A stretch of DNA of 64,000 bases from Ginglymostoma cirratum (lineage: Eukaryota), in NCBI GenBank assembly GCA_024137785.1, contig JAHRHZ010000059.1, forward strand, positions 4,840,624 through 4,904,623, in the 5' to 3' direction. Under the pieces are notes generated by a model. The model did not search any database. It worked only from the letters and a program-made list of their open reading frames with translations, and was not told the origin of the DNA. Position numbers and translations under genes: made by a program. Positions 6,006-58,744 of this stretch are shown piece by piece; positions within the stretch are counted from its first letter, which is position 1; every line of letters starts with the position of its first letter.

Positions 6006-6757
6006 TTAGTGCACTTTCCTTGTCATTATGGCATTGATTTGTCAACAAGTTAGTTAAATAGATAAAAGCAATTAGTGAAAAGCATTTAATGAAAACAGCT
6101 ATTCACAACATCAGCAAACAACTGAAGTCCTGAAATCAGGACTTTCATCTTCTTTGTTACAGTAATTCCCACTAACCAATCAAGACAGTTTTGAATCACT
6201 GCAAATGAAGTGATGAACAAAATCTAGAAACACGAAACATCATAACTTTAAAAGAAACAAAAGCATAAAATGCTAGGTTTGCCCAACTTTCCCCTTTAAA
6301 GCAGATTCTGATAAGAATATTTTTCATTAATTCACTGCTTAACAATTCTAAACTTTCGCAAGTGGAGGGTGTAAAATATTGATTTAGAGTCACATGTGAT
6401 CTGAAAGCAATTCAACTTACCTGAATGATTAACTGTCTCTGTTAACTTTCAACTTTAAATTTCACCTATCAAGCTGTATTGCTCATAACTAAAAGAACTT
6501 TGTTTACCATCCAAGGCCACCAGCAATAACCAACAAGCCCAGGATCCAGAAAAAGGTTTGTCTATGCATTAACCTCATATGTCAAGCAGAATCTTGATCT
6601 ATGAAACAGCAAAAAAAAAAGCAACTTATCAGTTTCTCTTTTCAACAAAAGACAATTGTTAAAAAAAAAAAGGATGCTGATCTATAGATACACTGAAGCC
6701 ATTTCCTGTGACGGTTCTCATGGTTAGTCAAAAAACAAACAAACAAATAACCAAATT

Positions 6758-8817
6758 GTTACAGAGATAGTAGGAACTGCCGGTGCTGGAGAATCTGAGA
6801 TAACAAAGGTGTAGAGCTGGATGAACACAGCAGGCCAAGCAGCATCAGAGGAGCAGGAAAGCTGACGTTTCGGGTCGACACCCTTCAGAAATGGGGGAGG
6901 GGAAGGGGATTCTGTAAATAAATTTAGAGAGGGGGGAGGCAGATAGAAGATGGATAGGAGGAGAGGATATGTGGACAGGAGACAGACAGGTCAAAGACGC
7001 GGGTTTGGAGCCAGTAAAGGTGAATGTAGGTGGGGAGGTAGGGAGGGGGTAGGTCAGTCCAGAGAGAATGGACAGGTCAAGGAGGCGAGATGAGGCTAGT
7101 AGGTATGAGATGGAGGTGGGAGGAATGGTTAGGGAGGCGGGGATGAGCTGGGCTGGTTTTGGGATGCAGTCAGGGGAGGGGAGATTTTGAAACTTGTGAC
7201 GTCCACGCTGATACCCTTGGGCTGCAGGGTCCCCAAGCAAAATATGAAATGCCGTTCCTGCAGCTTCCGGGTGGCATCATTGTGGCAATGCAGGAGGCCC
7301 AGGATGGACATGTCATCCAAGGAGGAGTGGGAGGGGGAGTTGAAATGGTTCGCGACTGGGAGGTGTAGTTGTAGTTGTTTGTTGCGAACTGAGCGTAGGT
7401 GTTCCACAAAGCAGTCCCCAAGCCTCTGCTTGGTTTCCCCGACGTAGAAGAGGCCACAATGGGAACAGCGGATACAGTATACCACATTAGGAGACGTGCA
7501 GGTGAGCATCTGTTTGATGTGGAAAGTCTTCTTAGGGCCTGGGATGGGAGGGGAAGAGTTGGAAAGGTGTAGGGGCAGGTGTAGCACTTGCTTCGGTTGC
7601 AGGGAAAAAATGCTGGGGGTGGTGGGGCTGGAGGAGGGGAGTGTGGAGCGGACAAGGGAGTCACGGAGACAGTGGTCCCTCCGGTAAGCAGATAAAGGGT
7701 GGGGAGGGAAAAATGTCTTTGGTGGTGGGGTCAGATTGCAGATGGCAGAAGTGTCGGAAGATGATGCGTTGGATTCGGATGTTGGTGGGGTGGTACGTGA
7801 GGACGAGGGGGATTCTGTTTTGGTTGTTATTGCGGGTAGGGGGTGTGAGGGATGAGTTGCGGGAAATGTGGAGACACAGTTGAGGGCATTTTCAACCACT
7901 GGAGAGGAAGTTGTGGTCCTTGAAAAACAAGGATATCTGGGATGTCTGGGAGTGGAATGCCTTATCTCGGGAGCAGATGCGGCAGAGGCGAAGGAATTGG
8001 GAATAGGGGATGGCCTTTTTGCAGGAAGGTGAGTGAGAGGAAGTGTATTCTAGGTAGCTGTGGGAGTCGGTAGGCTTGAAATGAATATCAGTTTCCAGGT
8101 AGATGCCAGAGATGGAGACAGAGAGGTCCAGGAAGGAGACAGAGGTATCAGAGATGGTCCAGGTGGAAAGTGTTAGTGAAGTGGATGAACTGTTCAAGCT
8201 CCTCGTGGGAGCATAAGGCGGCGCCAATACAGTCATCAATGTAACGGAGGAAGAGGTGGGGGATAGGGCCAGTGTAGCTTTGGAAGAGGGATTGTTCCAC
8301 GTATCCTACAAAGAGGCAGGCATAGCTTGGGCCCATGCGTCTGTAGGAAGTGGGAGGAATTGAAAGAGAAGTTGTCGAGGGTGAGAACAAGTTCGGCTAA
8401 GCGGATGAGGGTGTCAGTGAAGGAGGATGGTCAGGCCTGCAGGACAGGAAGAAGCGGAGGGCCTTTAGGCCATCTGCACGGGGAATGCAGGTGTATAAGG
8501 ACTGGATGTCCATGGTAAAGATGAGATGTTGGGGACCAGGGAATTGGAAGTTTTGGAGGAGGTGGAGGGCGTGGGTGGTGTCACGGATGTAGGTAGGGAG
8601 TTCCTGGACCAAGGGGGAGAAAATGGAGTTGAGATAGGTGGAGATAAGTTCGGTGGGGCAGGAGCAGGCGAAGACAATGGGTCAACCAGGGCAGTCAGGT
8701 TTGTGGATTTTGGGAAGGAGATAGAAACAGGCGGTGCGGGGTTGGGGAACGATGAGGTTAGAGGCTGTGGGTGGGAGGTCACCTGAAGTGATGAGGTTGT
8801 GGATGGTTTGGGAGATG
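6758..8817 (-). mobile_element. Penelope-like retroelement (RT plus GIY-YIG endonuclease), 5'-truncated and frameshifted
   Basis: RT motifs IFTMDIQSLYTCIP, MGPSYACLFVG, FLRYIDDCIG and VSFLDLSVSI..KPTDSHSYL are present. The GIY-YIG motif NVVYCIRCSHCGLFYVGETKQRL follows. The motifs are split over several frames. Confidence 0.93.
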
Positions 8818-9609
8818 CAACTGGAGCAAGTGCTACACCTGCCCCTACACCTCGCCCCTCACCCCCATCCCAGGGCCTAAGACCTTCCACATCAAATAGA
8901 TGATCACCTGCACATCTGCTAATGTGGTATACTGTATCCGCTGTGGCCTCCTCTATATCGGGGAAACCAAGCAGAGGCTTGGGGACTGCTTTGTGGAACA
9001 CCTACGCTCAGTTCACAACAAACAACTACAACTACAACTCCCAGTCGCGAACCATTTCAACTCCCCCTCCCACTCCTTGGACGACATGTGCATCCTGGGC
9101 CTCCTGCATTGCCACAATGATGCCACCCGGAAGCTGCAGAACAACATCTCATATTCCGCTTGGGAACCCTGCAGCCCAAGGGTATCAACGTGGACTTCAC
9201 AAGCTTCAAAATCTCCCCTCCCCCAACCACATCCCAAAACCAGCCCAGCTCATCCCCGCCTCCCTAGCCATTCCTCCCACCTCAAGCCCCACCCCCATCT
9301 CCTACCCACTAACCTCATCCTGCCTCCTTGACCTGTCCGTCCTCCCTGGACCAACCTATCCCCTCCCTAACTCCCCACCTACGTTCACCTTTACTGGCTC
9401 CATCCCAGCCTCTAACCTGTCTGTCTCCGCTCCACTTATCTTCTCCTTTATCCATCTTCTATCCGCCTCCCCCTCTCTCCCTATTTATTTCAGAATCCCC
9501 TTCCACTCCCCCATTTCTGAAGGGTCTCAACCCGAAACGTCAGCTTTCCTGCTCCTCTGATGCTGCTTGGCCTGCTGTGTTCATCCAGCTCTACACCTGT
9601 TGTTATCTC
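8816..9609 (+). mobile_element. Inverted second arm (GIY-YIG plus 3' end) of the same Penelope-like insertion
   Basis: NVVYCIRCGLLYIGETKQRLGDCFVEH. This segment is the reverse complement of 6797-7601 and joins the first arm at a TG overlap (8816-8817). Confidence 0.93.
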
Positions 9610-28500: not shown

Positions 28501-28999
28501 CCAAACAACCAATCATCTCTCTTTGTGCCAGAAAAGTCTCAATCACCAGACACAGCCTTTTCTAGCTCTACCATTCTCTTTCTTCCCTCTTTTCCACCCT
28601 CCCCTCCCCTCCACTCAGTGGCTTGGTTTTTCTGGGGCTCCTTGATCTCACACTCAAAGGCTGGCCTTGATATCAACGGTAATTGTCAGCTTTGCCTCTG
28701 AAATTCATAGGTCTTTTATCCAGGTTTGAATTAAATTTGAGGACCATAATTAACTGAGGTCAGGAGATAAAGAAGTTGCCTGGGCTGGGGGAGGCGCAGA
28801 AACTGAAGCAGAGCATCTGCGAGCAGGTCTTCACTAAGCAAAGACCCGAGAGTAGACTAATGGGGCAGTAACTGGTTAGGTGAGATTGGTCCTGCTTCTT
28901 GTATACAGATCGTATCTGAGTGGGTAGGTACCAGCAGCATTGCTGCACTTGAACAGTTTGGCTAGGGACATGGTAAGTTCTGGAGCTCAAAATCTTCAA

Positions 29000-29036
29000 T
29001 TCTGAGGAAGGGGCACCGGACCCGAAACATTAACTC
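29000..29036 (+). ncRNA. Minimal type I hammerhead ribozyme-like motif (best-preserved copy, probably decayed)
   Basis: CTGAGGA-A-GGGGC-ACCG-GACCC-GAAAC-ATT-AACTC gives a CUGANGA box, stem II and a GAAA box. Sister copies restore GGGTC/GACCC and GTT. Confidence 0.6.
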
Positions 29037-29133
29037 AGTTTCTTCCTTCACAGATGCTGCCAGACCTGCTGAGCTTTTCCAGCAACTTTGTTTTTGTTCC
29101 CGATTTACAGCATCCACAGTTCTTTTGGTTTTT
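29001..29133 (+). mobile_element. Solo PLE end of 133 bp with an 8-bp TSD
   Basis: TCTTCAAT at 28993-29000 and 29134-29141. The insertion begins at the hammerhead core TCTGAGGAAGG. Confidence 0.8.
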
Positions 29134-29747: not shown

Positions 29748-30325
29748 TCAGCCATGGGTTCAGTTAGTAAACACTTTTACCTGAGGCAAAAGATTGTGAG
29801 TTCAAGTCCAACTCTTAGACTGGAGTACAAAAGATCATAGCCAACACCTCTAGTACAGTACCAAGGAAGCGATGGTACCTCTAACAATAAAAACCAAAAA
29901 GAACTGTGGATGCTGTAAATCTGTTGAGGAAGGGTCACTGGACCCAAAATGTTAACTGATTTTTTTTCCTTCAGATGCTGCCAGACCTGCTGAGCTTTTC
30001 CAACAACTTGTTTTTGTACCTCTAACAGCATTTCTTTTGGATGAGGTGTTAAACGGAGGACCCACCTTCACTCTCAGGTGGATGTAAACAAGCCTTGCGC
30101 ACACTTTCGAGCAGAAGAGTTATCCCATCATCTTCACTAATAGTTACCCCTCAGCCAACAGCTGCAAAGAAATTCCAATCACTGCAGCGTTGTTAGTGAT
30201 GTGTAAAACTGACTGCTGCATTTTCTACACTACAAAAAGTACTAAACTTCAAAATTATTTCATGGGCCATAACCTGCGTTACGGTACCCACTGGACATGA
30301 AAAAAGGTGCTACATAAAAAGTCCT
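29748..30325 (+). mobile_element. Deu-domain SINE (SacSINE1/AmnSINE1-like) interrupted by a PLE mini-insertion
   Basis: tRNA-like head GAGTTCAAGTCC and Deu-like core GGATGAGGTGTTAAACGGAGG..CTCTCAGGTGGATGTAAA. The tail is GGTGCTACATAAAAAGTC. Confidence 0.65.
29887..30015. mobile_element. PLE mini-insertion with an inverted terminus and a 12-bp TSD
   Basis: GTACCTCTAACA at 29875-29886 and 30016-30027. The terminal 35 nt or so is inverted on the left, with the hammerhead-bearing segment on the right. Confidence 0.85.
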
Positions 30326-30911
30326 TTCCCCTCCATCTTCTCCCCACTAACATTGGTGTACAAACTGTCTTTCTGTACTATGAAATATTTATTTAGTCTC
30401 TTATCTGAAACTGCCTGATTATGTACATCTCATTTCTCTATTCCTTAGCACAAGAATACTTGTCTTCTCATCTCTTTTCGTTTGAAAAACACTTCCTATT
30501 GCCAGAAAAACCCTACTTGGTTAAGTTTTTAGATAACCATTTCTTTCAGCATTGTCCTGGGAAAAATAGGGATTTGCAGGAACAAAAATAGCTGTGTACT
30601 ACTTCTCCCAATCCAATCTAGTCACTGAATACCAAGCCCATGGTGGGGAACTTTTAAAAATCGGCTAATTGCCATTTTCATTTCCTCCCCACAATTAGTA
30701 CACCAGTAATTCTTCATTATCGTACTCACTTGAATCTTTTTCCTCTGTATCAAGACACAGAACATGTCTTTACAGTGTCACACCTTTCCAAGCTAGCCAG
30801 CTTCTCCACAAAGTGCAGCTCATAACTCTACATGCCAAAGAGCCCACTTCTATTAATTCTATCCTAAGTTTCATTCGCTTTTTTTTGTCTGCCATGAAGC
30901 AATTTCAAGAT

Positions 30912-31313
30912 AAAAACTGAAAGAACTGGAGATGCTGTAAATCAGGAACAAAAACAAAGTTGCTGGAAAAGCTCAGCAGGTCTGGCAGCATCTGTGGTAA
31001 CCTGTTATAATGAAAGGAATAAGCCCTAAAATGTTAACATGTGGGTGTGGGTGTGGGCAAGGGCAAGAGAGATACAGGGGTTTTACGTACATGACATGAA
31101 AATCAAGGAAGAAGAAATAGGAAGAGGAAAGATGTAGGGGTTAATTCAGCTTCTGTTTACACGTGTTGTTAAACTGAAGTTTTTTTTTCAAAACTTGAAG
31201 TTCTGAGGGTCACCGGACCCAAAATGTCAACATTTTTTTCCTTCACAGATGCTGCCAGATCTGCTGAGCTTTTCCAGCAAATTTGGTTTTGTTCCTGTTA
31301 TTGTTGTTGTTGT
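30912..31313. mobile_element. PLE inverted-end insertion enclosing captured DNA, 17-bp TSD
   Basis: TGAAGCAATTTCAAGAT at 30895-30911 and 31314-31330. The arms are 30912-30996(-) and 31201-31297(+). Confidence 0.88.
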
Positions 31314-32285
31314 TGAAGCAATTTCAAGATTTTGATCTTACCTTAGAGTGTCTCCCATATCCCATTTTATCTGACCAACTACCTCATTCACATTTACACC
31401 TTAAAACATATCTCCCTAATCTATTCTGCATCATTCTTCTTCGTCCCAAGAACCCTGATGTCAGTGGTCTCCATTTCCAAAAGTCTTCTAAAAGGCTCTT
31501 GGATATTCTACCAATGTGGTGTTCTTACTGGATATGTAAAACACTCAGGCATCATTTGTACACTTGAATTTGTGTACAAATTGTTGCCCGAGCTACAGTA
31601 TGACAAATCAACTGAGTGAAAAGTATTGAACCTTGCAAACACGTGGTTTTAAAACCAAACCGTTCTATTTTTGTTTTTTTTAAAATATTCAGGTCTCTAT
31701 TTAGGTTGTCTGCTAAACTCAGCGGCTCCAACTGTGAGACAGCATATAAAGACAATAAAATTAACACTTTTAAAATTGGCAAGTTTGTTATGAAGGGTTG
31801 ATAAAAAGTTTACTAAAAACTGTTGCTCCCAATGGCAGAAAGAAGGGGACACCAACCTTAAGTAAAATGTACAAGAAATGGTAGGGTGGGGAGGGGAGGT
31901 GAACCTGGTGAACCGAGTTTTTTTTTTAAAAAGAAAATCACATGCAGTATTTGCAAGGTAATGGAAGGAGATTTATGAGGCGTTGGTAACATACAAGAAT
32001 AACAAAATGCAGGGTTTTGGGGAAAACAGCAGGGAGATGGGAAAGGGTGTAGGCTCTTTCAAAAGAAATATTTATCCAATTACATTAAGGAAGTTAGATT
32101 TTCCAGTTAATCACCCTCCCAAACCCCCCATTGAAAAGAAGCAATTTCTGCTCCTGGAGCAATCATGCAGAACCCCTTTCATTAGGGGAATAAGATCAAT
32201 GTCGGTCTCCAATCACAATAACAGATGTTAGAAGTGTAATGTATTTTTGAGATGCTAAATTATAATGTATTCTGCAAGTTTTCTA

Positions 32286-32479
32286 GTTATAATGAAAGGA
32301 ATAAACCCCAAAATGTTAACGTGCAGGTGTGGGCAAAGGCGAGGGCATGACATACAGGGGTTTACGTACATGACATGACAATAAAGGATGAAGAAATAGG
32401 AAGAGGAAAGACGTGGGGGTTAATTCAGCTTCTGTCTACAGGTGCTGTTAAACTGAAGTTTTTTTTCCAGACTTGAAGT
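32286..32479 (+). repeat. About 195-bp segment duplicated in direct orientation at 31004-31201
   Basis: Both copies run GTTATAATGAAAGGAATAA..AAAATGTTAAC..TTTACGTACATGACATGA..GAAGAAATAGGAAGAGGAAAGA..GTTAATTCAGCTTCTGT..TGTTAAACTGAAGTTTT..ACTTGAAGT. Confidence 0.95.
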
Positions 32480-34226
32480 ACTTATGCCCTTATTCTAACA
32501 TCTGCAGCACTTCACACTCCCATTAAAAGTAAAATGCCATTTGAATGCTGTACATTTGCTCAGTATGTTCTTTAAAAAAGTGCTTAAACCTTCAGTACTG
32601 CTGAAAATATTGAGCTGAATCTTGCAGTTTAGGCCAAATGCAAGTTGCATCAAGTTTGGTGGAGTAACTCTTGCCGCAAGGCCAAGCAAGTGGGAGTTAC
32701 ATCTTATCAAACTCATCGCATTAAGTGGTATTTAATCCCTCATGGCATGCATCATGTCTGATGTCCACAACATCTTACTGAGCATCATTCATGGAGCAAC
32801 TTACCACTGAAAAGCATTTGTAGCTCCAGCACCATATTTAAAAGGCTACTGTGCACCCTGGAAGCATGATCAGCATGGAGCTGCCCTGCATGGTTTTAGG
32901 CTTTTGGCCCAAACAAGGCAGACAGGGACAGATAAACAGTGCCTTGTTTTGCAGGCCTGGTCTTGGAGCTCCTGAAGAATGGGTAGGCAGAACTTCCTCT
33001 TCTACTCCCCCTCCCAGGACCAATGGAGGCCATGACACCTGACCATGCCAGCCTGGTCAGAGGTTACCATCCATATTGGAGCGATCCAGCCATCTGGGGA
33101 GAATATTTAGCACTGAAGGAAGGTAGCCAATGGTGTTCTGCACTACACCAGCACAGGTGCCACCATTTCCCAAATATGTCAATCTCTGCTACTGCACCAC
33201 CTCCCACTAGTGCTCATTATCTACCACTAATGCAATGCAACCAATTCTATACTCACCCTCTCCCAATCCAAACTGGGGCACCACTAACTCTGCACTACCT
33301 ATTCACTCACTCAAGCAAACTGTTATCCTCCCTCATCTTCCAAACCTCCAGCCTCTCCATTATTCCAGAAGCAAAACATCCCACAATGGGGCAAAGAGTC
33401 AAGAAAACCAGTGTGCTACTGATCATTCAGCATCTTGCCCTTTACGATCAGAGGGTAATGACGGGAATCTTGCCTCGAACAGGGCCTAGACTCATTGGAA
33501 GTTTAGTCTGACTGATCCCAAGTAAAGGCTATCCCCTTGATGGGTAGCAGCCCAACAACTATGGCAAGCTTTCTGGTTCTGTGCTGGTGCTAAATGGCAG
33601 GGCAGGACTGATGGGTCAGTCAGATCAGTCAGTACCGCTGGACAAGGGCAATGAGGGTAATGCAAGGCTGGTGGGCTGGAACCAGTTAGGTTCAGAGTAA
33701 GTGAGCACTACGATAGTGAGTAAAGAGCCTACAGATGTAGCCTGGTCTATTCCAAGAGTTGGGTATGCATCGCTGAGCATAAGAGTGTCCTTGCTGTAAC
33801 ATTAATTGCAGGTCCACCTCAAGATATAGCACTGAAATGTAGAGCATCCTGCAGGTGGATCAGAGATGAGCCATAGGTTCAGAGGCTGGTCCATGTTGAA
33901 TACAATGTCCATAGATGGGTGGTGGATGGGGCCAGGGGCCAGGGTCCATGAAGCATGCTGGAGATACTGGCGCCCGATGTTCACCATGGAGGTCTTTTGA
34001 TGCAAATTACAAGCTGAATCCACCAACCATCCAGTTTAGTTTTCATGTCTGGGTTTCCCCCAAAGCTAGTTTGCAGATTTTTTTTTTTTTTTAAAAAACA
34101 TGTCTGAACGTTTACAACCTCATTCGCATCTTCTGGCCCATAGGTTGGGATGTTGCTGTGCCACAACACTGGCTAGTTTGTATGGAGTTTGACAAGATCA
34201 AACCCACGGCAAGTCAAACTGTTAAA

Positions 34227-57450: not shown

Positions 57451-58149
57451 CAGCTGGCCTGGCTGATATCATCATTTCCCCTGACCTATCCCTATTCCAT
57501 AGAGAAGCATGTTGTAAGTTACCCTGACTCTGTGACTTGTAGATGCTTGTGTTGAAATCAACTGAGCATATTGAATGTTTGGGGGACAAAGCCCACACTA
57601 ACACTTATTAATCAAGGAGCTATCAAGGCAGCAACAGCTGGAAATGGAAGTTTGCATGAGTCAGTTACTCAATACTATCACAACACAACAATTTCAAGGA
57701 TCCTTTCTCCCTCTTAAGTGCAAGGTAAGCCCACTTCCACTGCTAGGGTGGGTGAGGGCTGGTATGCCTTCCTTCACCTGCTTGTTGTAGTCCAGAGTTA
57801 AGAAAATGCCTAGCCGATGAGTCACCTCCCCACTGGCTACAGCCGTATTTGGGTTGTCTGATCATGCTGTAATGCACAAATCCATTTTTTTCAGCAGATT
57901 TATCTGTTCTGTCTATTTTTGCTTTGTGCATTCAAGAGTGGTATGTTAAACTACACAGCAGACACTTGGACAGATATGTCATTCTGAAGGATTTATAATC
58001 ATTTTCAGATTATAGGAATGTTAAAAAGATAACATCTAACCCTCAATCCTCTTCCCCTTCTCTGATATTTGAATTCCTTTTGGAGAGAATGTGAAGCATG
58101 TAAAATATGCATCTTGTACTTTTCCAAAAAATTTTGAAACACATTAGTT

Positions 58150-58449: not shown

Positions 58450-58744
58450 TGTTTTGGGCTAGTGTAATTTCTTTTTTAGTATAATTGTAGAAATTTCAGA
58501 GATCAGAGTAACACCATTCAGTGAATATTCAACATCATTGATGGCATGTGAAAGTTTCCAGAGAAAACATAAACACTATGTAAAGTTAAAGCCTGAAAAG
58601 ACTTATAACGAGTTTAAAATGCTCTATGTCAGTGCACAAAGCAAAAACAGAAGAGAAACCTGTTGAAGTAATAGATTTGTGCAATACAGCATGATCAGAT
58701 AACTTGTGGATGGTCAGATAGTCACCACACAATGTAATTGTTAA

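Follow-up and report, generated by a model that had tools for sequence, protein, structure and literature searches.

A Penelope-like element insertion in Ginglymostoma cirratum encloses a copy of a neighbouring, decayed element end that may have been templated by RNA

In this study, we have analysed a 64,000-nucleotide stretch of the Ginglymostoma cirratum genome (GenBank assembly GCA_024137785.1, contig JAHRHZ010000059.1, positions 4,840,624 to 4,904,623 of the forward strand), referred to here as the window, and have found that an insertion of a Penelope-like element (PLE) at window positions 30895-31330 holds, between two outward-facing arms, a copy (S') of a segment (S, 32286-32479) lying about 1 kb downstream, which belongs to a decayed PLE end. 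That S' was made by the RT of the element from RNA of this neighbour, during the same insertion as the arms, is in our judgement an evenly balanced proposition. The original prediction of one integration event with a locally templated centre stands as regards the TSD-bracketed structure and the local template; that S' arrived together with both arms is something we infer.

The two TSD copies are identical at 17 of 17 positions, as had been predicted, and have no further copy in the window; the duplication may measure 15-17 bp, since its last two bases may belong to the A/T at the 3' end of the element, and ends of this PLE family are often trailed by A, AT or ATT. Both outward-facing ends and the (TGT)n filler were recovered as well; the forward end had been placed from 31201 and starts 2 nt earlier, and arm 2 and S' overlap by 3 nt (AGT). 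Arm 1 matches a real family copy at 93% and, compared with the family majority, shows 0/80 differences outside CpG or polymorphic columns and 5/6 within them, while arm 2 has 7/90 differences from the family plus 6 gaps, and its hammerhead is damaged by a 4-nt loss and by CpG decay. The filler between arm 1 and S' may be a diverged copy of the roughly 10 nt to the left of the donor, past a 4-nt microhomology (by eye); in relative C it is of equal length, with 4 of 9 letters different. The (TGT)n-like filler likely arose by slippage at priming. S' aligns with S at 86.6% across 201 columns (E 1.5e-62), and the two differ by 22 substitutions and by 4 gap columns in 198, so that the direct copy is present as predicted, in a diverged and not an exact form. 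No host gene was identified near the locus by Pfam in 146 of 166 non-repeat ORFs, which gave one sub-cutoff match, and the effect on the host is therefore probably nil.

Table. Features of the insertion and its donor (positions in the window; PLE positions counted from the RNA end)
Feature	Position	Strand	Remark
Left TSD, 15-17 bp	30895..30911	+	Same as 31314-31330; relatives A and C share it together with the beginning of arm 1
Arm 1, PLE 3' end, family positions 0 to -85, terminal-start type	30912..30997	-	
Junction filler, 6-7 nt	30998..31003		
Captured copy S' of the neighbouring decayed end, relic positions about -135 to -42	31004..31201	+	
Arm 2, PLE end, -135 to -31, internal-start type	31199..31297	+	
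(TGT)n-like filler	31298..31313	+	One parallel among 42 TSD-flanked pairs
Right TSD	31314..31330	+	Same as left TSD
Single-copy middle segment, 955 bp, right TSD to donor	31331..32285		
Donor block 1, decayed hammerhead block, relic start (-136)	32285..32320	+	Weight matrix 22.1 bits
Insert splitting the relic, ~100 nt	32321..32418	+	
Run of 20 bp identical in S and S', inferred deletion crossover of relative C	32416..32435	+	
Donor block 2, decayed PLE end to about position 0	32419..32521	+	Profile 13.7 bits

The arms belong to an EN+ PLE, whose GIY-YIG endonuclease is C-terminal and encoded ahead of the 3' pLTR: in longer family members, a GIY-YIG ORF precedes this end by about 240-330 nt. 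The Pfam GIY-YIG model matched one family copy with an E value of 2e-4 (22.1 bits against a cutoff of 22.6), another copy with 0.17, and the sister family with 1e-5, above the cutoff. Motifs of RT type lie further upstream in broken frames, from which an intact ORF was not recovered, and RVT_1 was matched below the cutoff (E 4.5e-4) in one of two fragments, that of the sister family. Family copies contain the hammerhead core motif by sequence; Rfam returned no hammerhead match, its sole result being MIR533, matched below threshold in a different PLE hairpin, and short folds of the putative hammerhead were no better than those of shuffled sequences.

Among 253 arm hits, 111 start at the RNA end and 96 at -45 to -27, and 146 stop at -140 to -129, that is, at the hammerhead start, with 11 stops at -81 to -87. 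Closely spaced pairs join a terminal-start to an internal-start arm in 54 of 58 cases, and 41 of the 58 have a TSD of at least 9 bp (median, 13). Filler of at least 10 nt is found in 2 of 42 TSD-flanked pairs, the present insertion being one of them, and is (GTT)n at the internal-type end in both. The arms, the TSD and the (TGT)n filler are ordinary for the family, in which an inverted 5'-truncated copy, a one-sided tail of 30-40 bp and a TSD recur; the inverted-plus-tail layout is described for PLEs in the accessible portions of PMC8557442 and PMC3846280. The pair layout and the two start registers agree with the two-strand nicking and the two RT start sites, 30-40 nt apart, reported for an anole PLE in vitro (PMC11167929, available text). 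Elsewhere in the window, a head-to-head pair of the same family at 29876-30028 has non-overlapping arms (-31 to 0 and -130 to -36) and a 12-bp TSD and resembles twin priming on one RNA, a single full end (-137 to 0) with a TSD of ~8 bp by eye lies at 28996-29133, and a long inverted pair of the sister PLE family, both of whose arms contain GIY-YIG frames, occupies 6753-9609.

The donor had originally been taken for plain host sequence, a view that we have abandoned. The donor is a decayed PLE end that runs from -136 to about 0 and is split by a ~100-nt insert, for which no match was found in PLE upstream profiles. A profile of 84 older copies gave 13.7 bits over 32420-32516, and its reversed decoy had 0 matches of at least 8 bits in 1.22 Mb. 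The second line of evidence is a weight matrix of 116 hammerhead starts, which peaks at 32285 with 22.1 bits, a level compared with 0 of 2.47 million reversed-decoy positions reaching 19.1 bits, and which was trained on a pattern that tolerated CpG decay and was devised after the donor had been seen. Collinear pLTR similarity is seen by these two methods and is weaker by others: a plain HMM of the hammerhead block gave only 4.2 bits on the donor, plain local alignment with the PLE end gave P values of 0.08-0.22, a young-copy profile gave 1.9 bits on the relic, and the relic stems are weak (z -0.4 and -1.9). A relic match like that of the donor was found in only 104 of 20,000 non-repeat segments, and no TSD was found around the relic. 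As the hypothesis of local capture had required, a genome search with S returned exactly two matches, S and S' (2/2 candidates scored), in a search that skips very common words, so that distant kin of the donor could escape it. The possibility that the donor is a dispersed repeat or a non-autonomous family was rejected on these two genome matches, with the very common words skipped.

The ends of S' fall on recognisable positions of the relic. S' starts at -135, 1 nt from the predicted relic start, and the hammerhead-start matrix scores 18.9 bits at 31003; the chance of a start near a same-strand hammerhead start is about 0.0008 for a distance of up to 5 nt and about 0.002 for up to 15 nt. At the other end, the stop at 32479 corresponds to about -42, as read from two anchors in an ungapped register, and sits about 7 nt past the family internal-start peak (-35/-36). 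Since these ends nearly match those of an internal-start arm, S' looks like a third arm. A word shared by the donor and the PLE end, which had been noted as perhaps due to chance, proved to be real and non-chance; it is the hammerhead core of the relic with two CpG-type changes. The accompanying suggestion that it guided capture failed, as the word lies ~20 nt inside the copy, and a role as an in-register junction guide was rejected because neither junction falls at it.

Related organisms provide a second view of the locus. In contigs of A (X1 and X8, from two studies) and of C (X17), the left flank continues into arm 1; separately, contigs from the same three sources lead from arm 1 across the segment straight to the right flank of the donor, with the middle missing. 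X17 and X18, from one study, have arm 1 and a filler of the same length to the left of the segment. Flank differences from the window amount to 29/634 in A and 46/635 in C, and organism B is represented by two 151-nt records identical to the window, neither of them at the junctions. Among the relatives found, there was no empty site with one TSD copy, A and C already having arm 1. In C, 7 of the 8 sites as far as 32415 carry the S' state and 4 of the 5 beyond it the S state (Fisher P 0.03), a hybrid signal of 13 sites in one species, with A scored in part only; the scoring leaves out an ambiguous block of low complexity and two sites close to the end of the contig. A is concordant with the hybrid pattern at the sites listed.

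Single-strand annealing or unequal recombination between direct repeats removes one repeat and the interval and leaves a hybrid. The relatives have a single hybrid repeat and lack the interval, the full scoring being that of C only. The simplest reading of these sequences, with A, C and the window unrooted, would be that recombination within the 20-bp run of identity deleted about 1.28 kb; the ~1.3 kb that separates copy from original was probably lost from A and C when the pair later recombined. Deletion is preferred because the reverse order demands the gain of a TSD, arm 2 and 955 bp of unique DNA. The locus differs from other cases of direct-repeat recombination in that the insertion itself would have made the repeat pair and the end product mimics a retrotransposon target-site deletion.

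Local copies at PLE ends were also sought elsewhere. Among the 73 pair rows of a census of 167 loci, which is biased to young copies, only the present insertion has a unique local spacer; it is one of 15 rows with a gap of >35 nt, the others being 6 with N, 2 with longer PLE sequence, 2 with nested repeats and 4 mis-pairings. Six of the 73 rows have an N run between the arms; gaps at palindrome centres are thus common, and the number of captures may be an underestimate. Junction probes in 1.22 Mb of readable sequence, out of 1.664 Mb contiguous, detected a unique local copy at 8/70 PLE 5' ends, 2/169 3' ends and 44/3,823 random positions. Two of the eight positive 5' probes are the present insertion, and three were dropped on inspection, L012 for its long old arms, L082 as part of a larger duplication and L040 because arm plus flank are shared. 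There remained three new 5' captures (L038, L094 and L193) against 0.24 expected (P 0.002), a recurrence that supports the predicted PLE route to local duplication. The donors of L038, L094, L193 and of a further capture, L179, are ordinary DNA in which PLE signal is absent, and a search for TSDs at L038, L094 and L193 found none.

The layout of L193:3449-3691 is that of the present insertion, with a trace of a minus arm, a 7-nt filler, a direct copy of ~90 nt and a plus arm; its donor (L193:4521-4617) lies 0.8 kb downstream, and no TSD was found. At L094:2299-2411, L038:212-293 and L179:7912-8025, which involve three other PLE families, ordinary local DNA has been copied at 5' junctions from donors on the priming flank at distances of 0.5-9 kb. 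The PLE ends at L040:7926-8061 and L041:8039-8209, separated by 10 kb, have 38 nt of 5' flank in common, in inverted orientation; the flank appears native at L040, and the L041 insertion may have involved a switch to the neighbouring end. The arms at L109:9344-9440 and L110:355-451, 1 kb apart, have 3 of 4 rare variants in common (3-10% elsewhere) and no shared flank, and two of these variants are missing from the partner arm of L110; one of the two is possibly a second neighbour-templated arm. Other repeat edges are likewise enriched in local copies (13 against 2.2 expected), and 2 of nine such regions viewed are capture-like, so that capture is not established as specific to PLEs. That it may not be specific is also suggested by L177:2927-2975, where two pieces of a non-PLE repeat, which we take to be LINE-like, flank a 50-nt copy of sequence 0.6 kb distant. 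Local two-copy duplications number 37 in 1.22 Mb, or about one per 33 kb, most of them without an edge repeat, and the window contains an inverted one (57853-57930 and 58633-58703, 79% over 78 nt) whose edges are without repeats. An open frame at L072:1165-1389 resembles, by motif, what is presumably a hexokinase exon.

As a whole, these data are in our view best explained by RNA-templated re-initiation on the neighbouring relic, an explanation in which we place about as much belief as disbelief. The endonuclease would nick both strands 15-17 bp apart and both ends would prime cDNA synthesis, starting for arm 1 at the RNA end and for arm 2 about 31 nt inside it. The arm-2 cDNA would halt at the hammerhead start and jump, via three shared bases, to a putative relic transcript, landing near the relic's own internal-start region; it would then reach the hammerhead start of the relic RNA and be joined to arm 1 via the short filler, the product having one inverted and two direct ends, as is usual for Penelope. 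Subsequently, on the lineage or lineages of A and C, the 195-bp direct repeats would have recombined with the loss of about 1.28 kb, comprising arm 2, the right TSD and the middle, and left a remnant that mimics a one-armed insertion with a target-site deletion.

An RNA template would provide one cause for both ends of S', namely, an internal start near the tail and a stop at the hammerhead start. Template switching is expected to involve a partner in the same orientation, and the shared orientation and the 3-nt overlap seen here fit RT template switching as presented in the accessible part of PMC13174262; the orientation of S', which is that of arm 2, the single TSD and the overlap are such features as are also compatible with a DNA template. 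By analogy, the stop at the hammerhead start may equal a transcription start, and an internal promoter has been reported for Drosophila Penelope (PMC2377424, available text). S' has neither poly(A) nor an intron. The ages agree within error, S and S' differing at 22/194 positions over two lineages and the arms at 7/170 non-CpG positions over one. Recognition of the relic by the RNP is doubtful, because the relic was already heavily decayed when copied (1.9 bits; weak stems). When arms were tested for resemblance to their neighbours, P was 0.005 at one of four margins and 0.08-0.09 at the others, with pairs counted twice.

We rank this explanation above DNA-templated repair, which is nonetheless a serious contender with perhaps a third of our belief. 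Within a single insertion, the right end would be resected and the arm-1 cDNA would anneal ~1 kb along by microhomology, be extended by 195 nt by a host polymerase or the RT, be released, and re-anneal to the arm-2 cDNA via 3 bases; overlap with the relic would then be a coincidence or reflect the binding or nicking of its tail region by a PLE protein. The four other captures, of ordinary DNA with the same geometry as the present insertion, indicate that a DNA route exists in this genome: they comprise the three in excess of expectation and one at another PLE family (L179), and their donors lie on the arm-priming flank in 4/4 cases, 0.5-9 kb off, two direct and two inverted, which fits resection. 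There is also a 4-nt match, by eye, about 10 nt left of the donor start, and L1 yields insertions of this kind (bioRxiv 10.1101/2024.08.27.596794 and PMC11702581, accessible portions). However, a DNA template does not account for both ends of S' falling on the cDNA-like registers of the relic, for which the chance of the start alone is about 0.001-0.002, and in-register pairing with the relic predicts an inverted copy or a run into the middle, neither of which is observed. Furthermore, with no TSD at L038, L094 and L193, these captures are not proven to be single events.

An origin in two steps, in which a head-to-head pair formed first and the copy entered its centre later, trimming arm 1 to -85, either by break repair at the palindrome or as a separate trans-mobilised PLE insertion, is unlikely. 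Arm 1 is shorter than most, 146/253 arm hits reaching -129 or beyond, but the 11 hits with stops at -81 to -87 show that arms stop naturally near -85. Nested repeats occupy the centre of 2/73 pair rows, and the ages cannot resolve events a few percent apart; even so, the divergence of copy and donor (22/194) if anything exceeds that of the arms and TSD (3/71; P 0.10), a second TSD is absent, and the junction of arm 1 with the copy is older than the split from A and C. It is most improbable that A and C preserve the ancestral state in their one-armed allele and that the longer form in the window is later or an assembly artefact. The short form occurs in 2 of 3 species, the flank differences permit the window to be grouped with A, and no read of the window species was seen to span arm 2 or the right TSD. 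Nevertheless, a second TSD, a second arm and 955 bp of single-copy DNA would have to be gained from nowhere, the divergence between S and S' (11%) exceeds that between the window and A (4.6%), and the segment in C shifts from copy-like to donor-like. An assembly duplication would be expected to be near-identical, unlike the divergence of 11-13% seen here, and the left junction is common to the relatives; both points tell against the artefact that had been named from the outset as an alternative.

This insertion is close to several known systems. EN+ PLE insertions have the same one inverted and two direct ends, one-sided tail, TSD and hammerhead at the pLTR start (PMC8557442, PMC3846280 and PMC11167929, as far as accessible), whereas the middle direct unit comes here from a long-dead copy 1 kb off and not from the active family. 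In Adineta vaga, non-family sequences likewise lie within TSD-bracketed PLE structures, with Pen1 spacers, the NRPS of Pen3a and unrelated sequences between solo pLTRs, and action in trans on pLTR signals has been proposed; unlike the present case, the accessible part of that report (PMC3846280) describes no adjacent donor, relic-bounded ends or later deletion. L1 twin priming also involves two cDNAs from both ends and a junction copy of <250 bp of nearby DNA (available text of bioRxiv 10.1101/2024.08.27.596794 and PMC11702581), and such templated insertions account for 22/3,598 insertions. The L1 templates described there lie within about 15 bp of the site, compared with about 955 bp here and up to 9 kb in the other cases, and PLE arms, unlike those of L1, overlap in the RNA. 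Assignment to the L1 class of templated insertion was rejected for this reason, the distance (955 against ~15 bp) not fitting and the length (195 bp) fitting; the two work alike. LINE-1 chimeras made by RT switching have the partner 5' of the element, in the same orientation and within one TSD, as here, but the partner in those chimeras is an abundant RNA of other origin (U6, rRNA, Alu), whereas the present partner is an adjacent locus (PMC13174262, accessible part). Capture between pLTRs in rotifers and templated insertion in L1 are thus already in print in these sources; an arm copied from an adjacent dead PLE was not found in the literature at the level of titles and the beginnings of abstracts, with most subscription papers outside this scope.

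The origin of the tandem and inverted ends of PLEs is still open, according to the accessible portions of PMC8557442 and PMC11167929. Identical family RNA conceals the choice of template; where a decayed source locus can be identified, as in this one well-resolved locus on which our case rests, it reveals the template that the enzyme used as well as where it started and stopped. The relatives, in turn, show a two-step route, local duplication followed by recombination, to a 1.3-kb deletion that would be mistaken for a direct product of insertion. We tentatively propose, at somewhat below even confidence, that a stalled PLE RT may re-initiate on the RNA of dead PLEs ~1 kb off, with the same start near the tail and the same stop at the hammerhead start. 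Old relics would then remain in use as local templates, some ordinary-looking arms would be copies of neighbours, and the resulting repeats would seed deletions that pass as target-site deletions.
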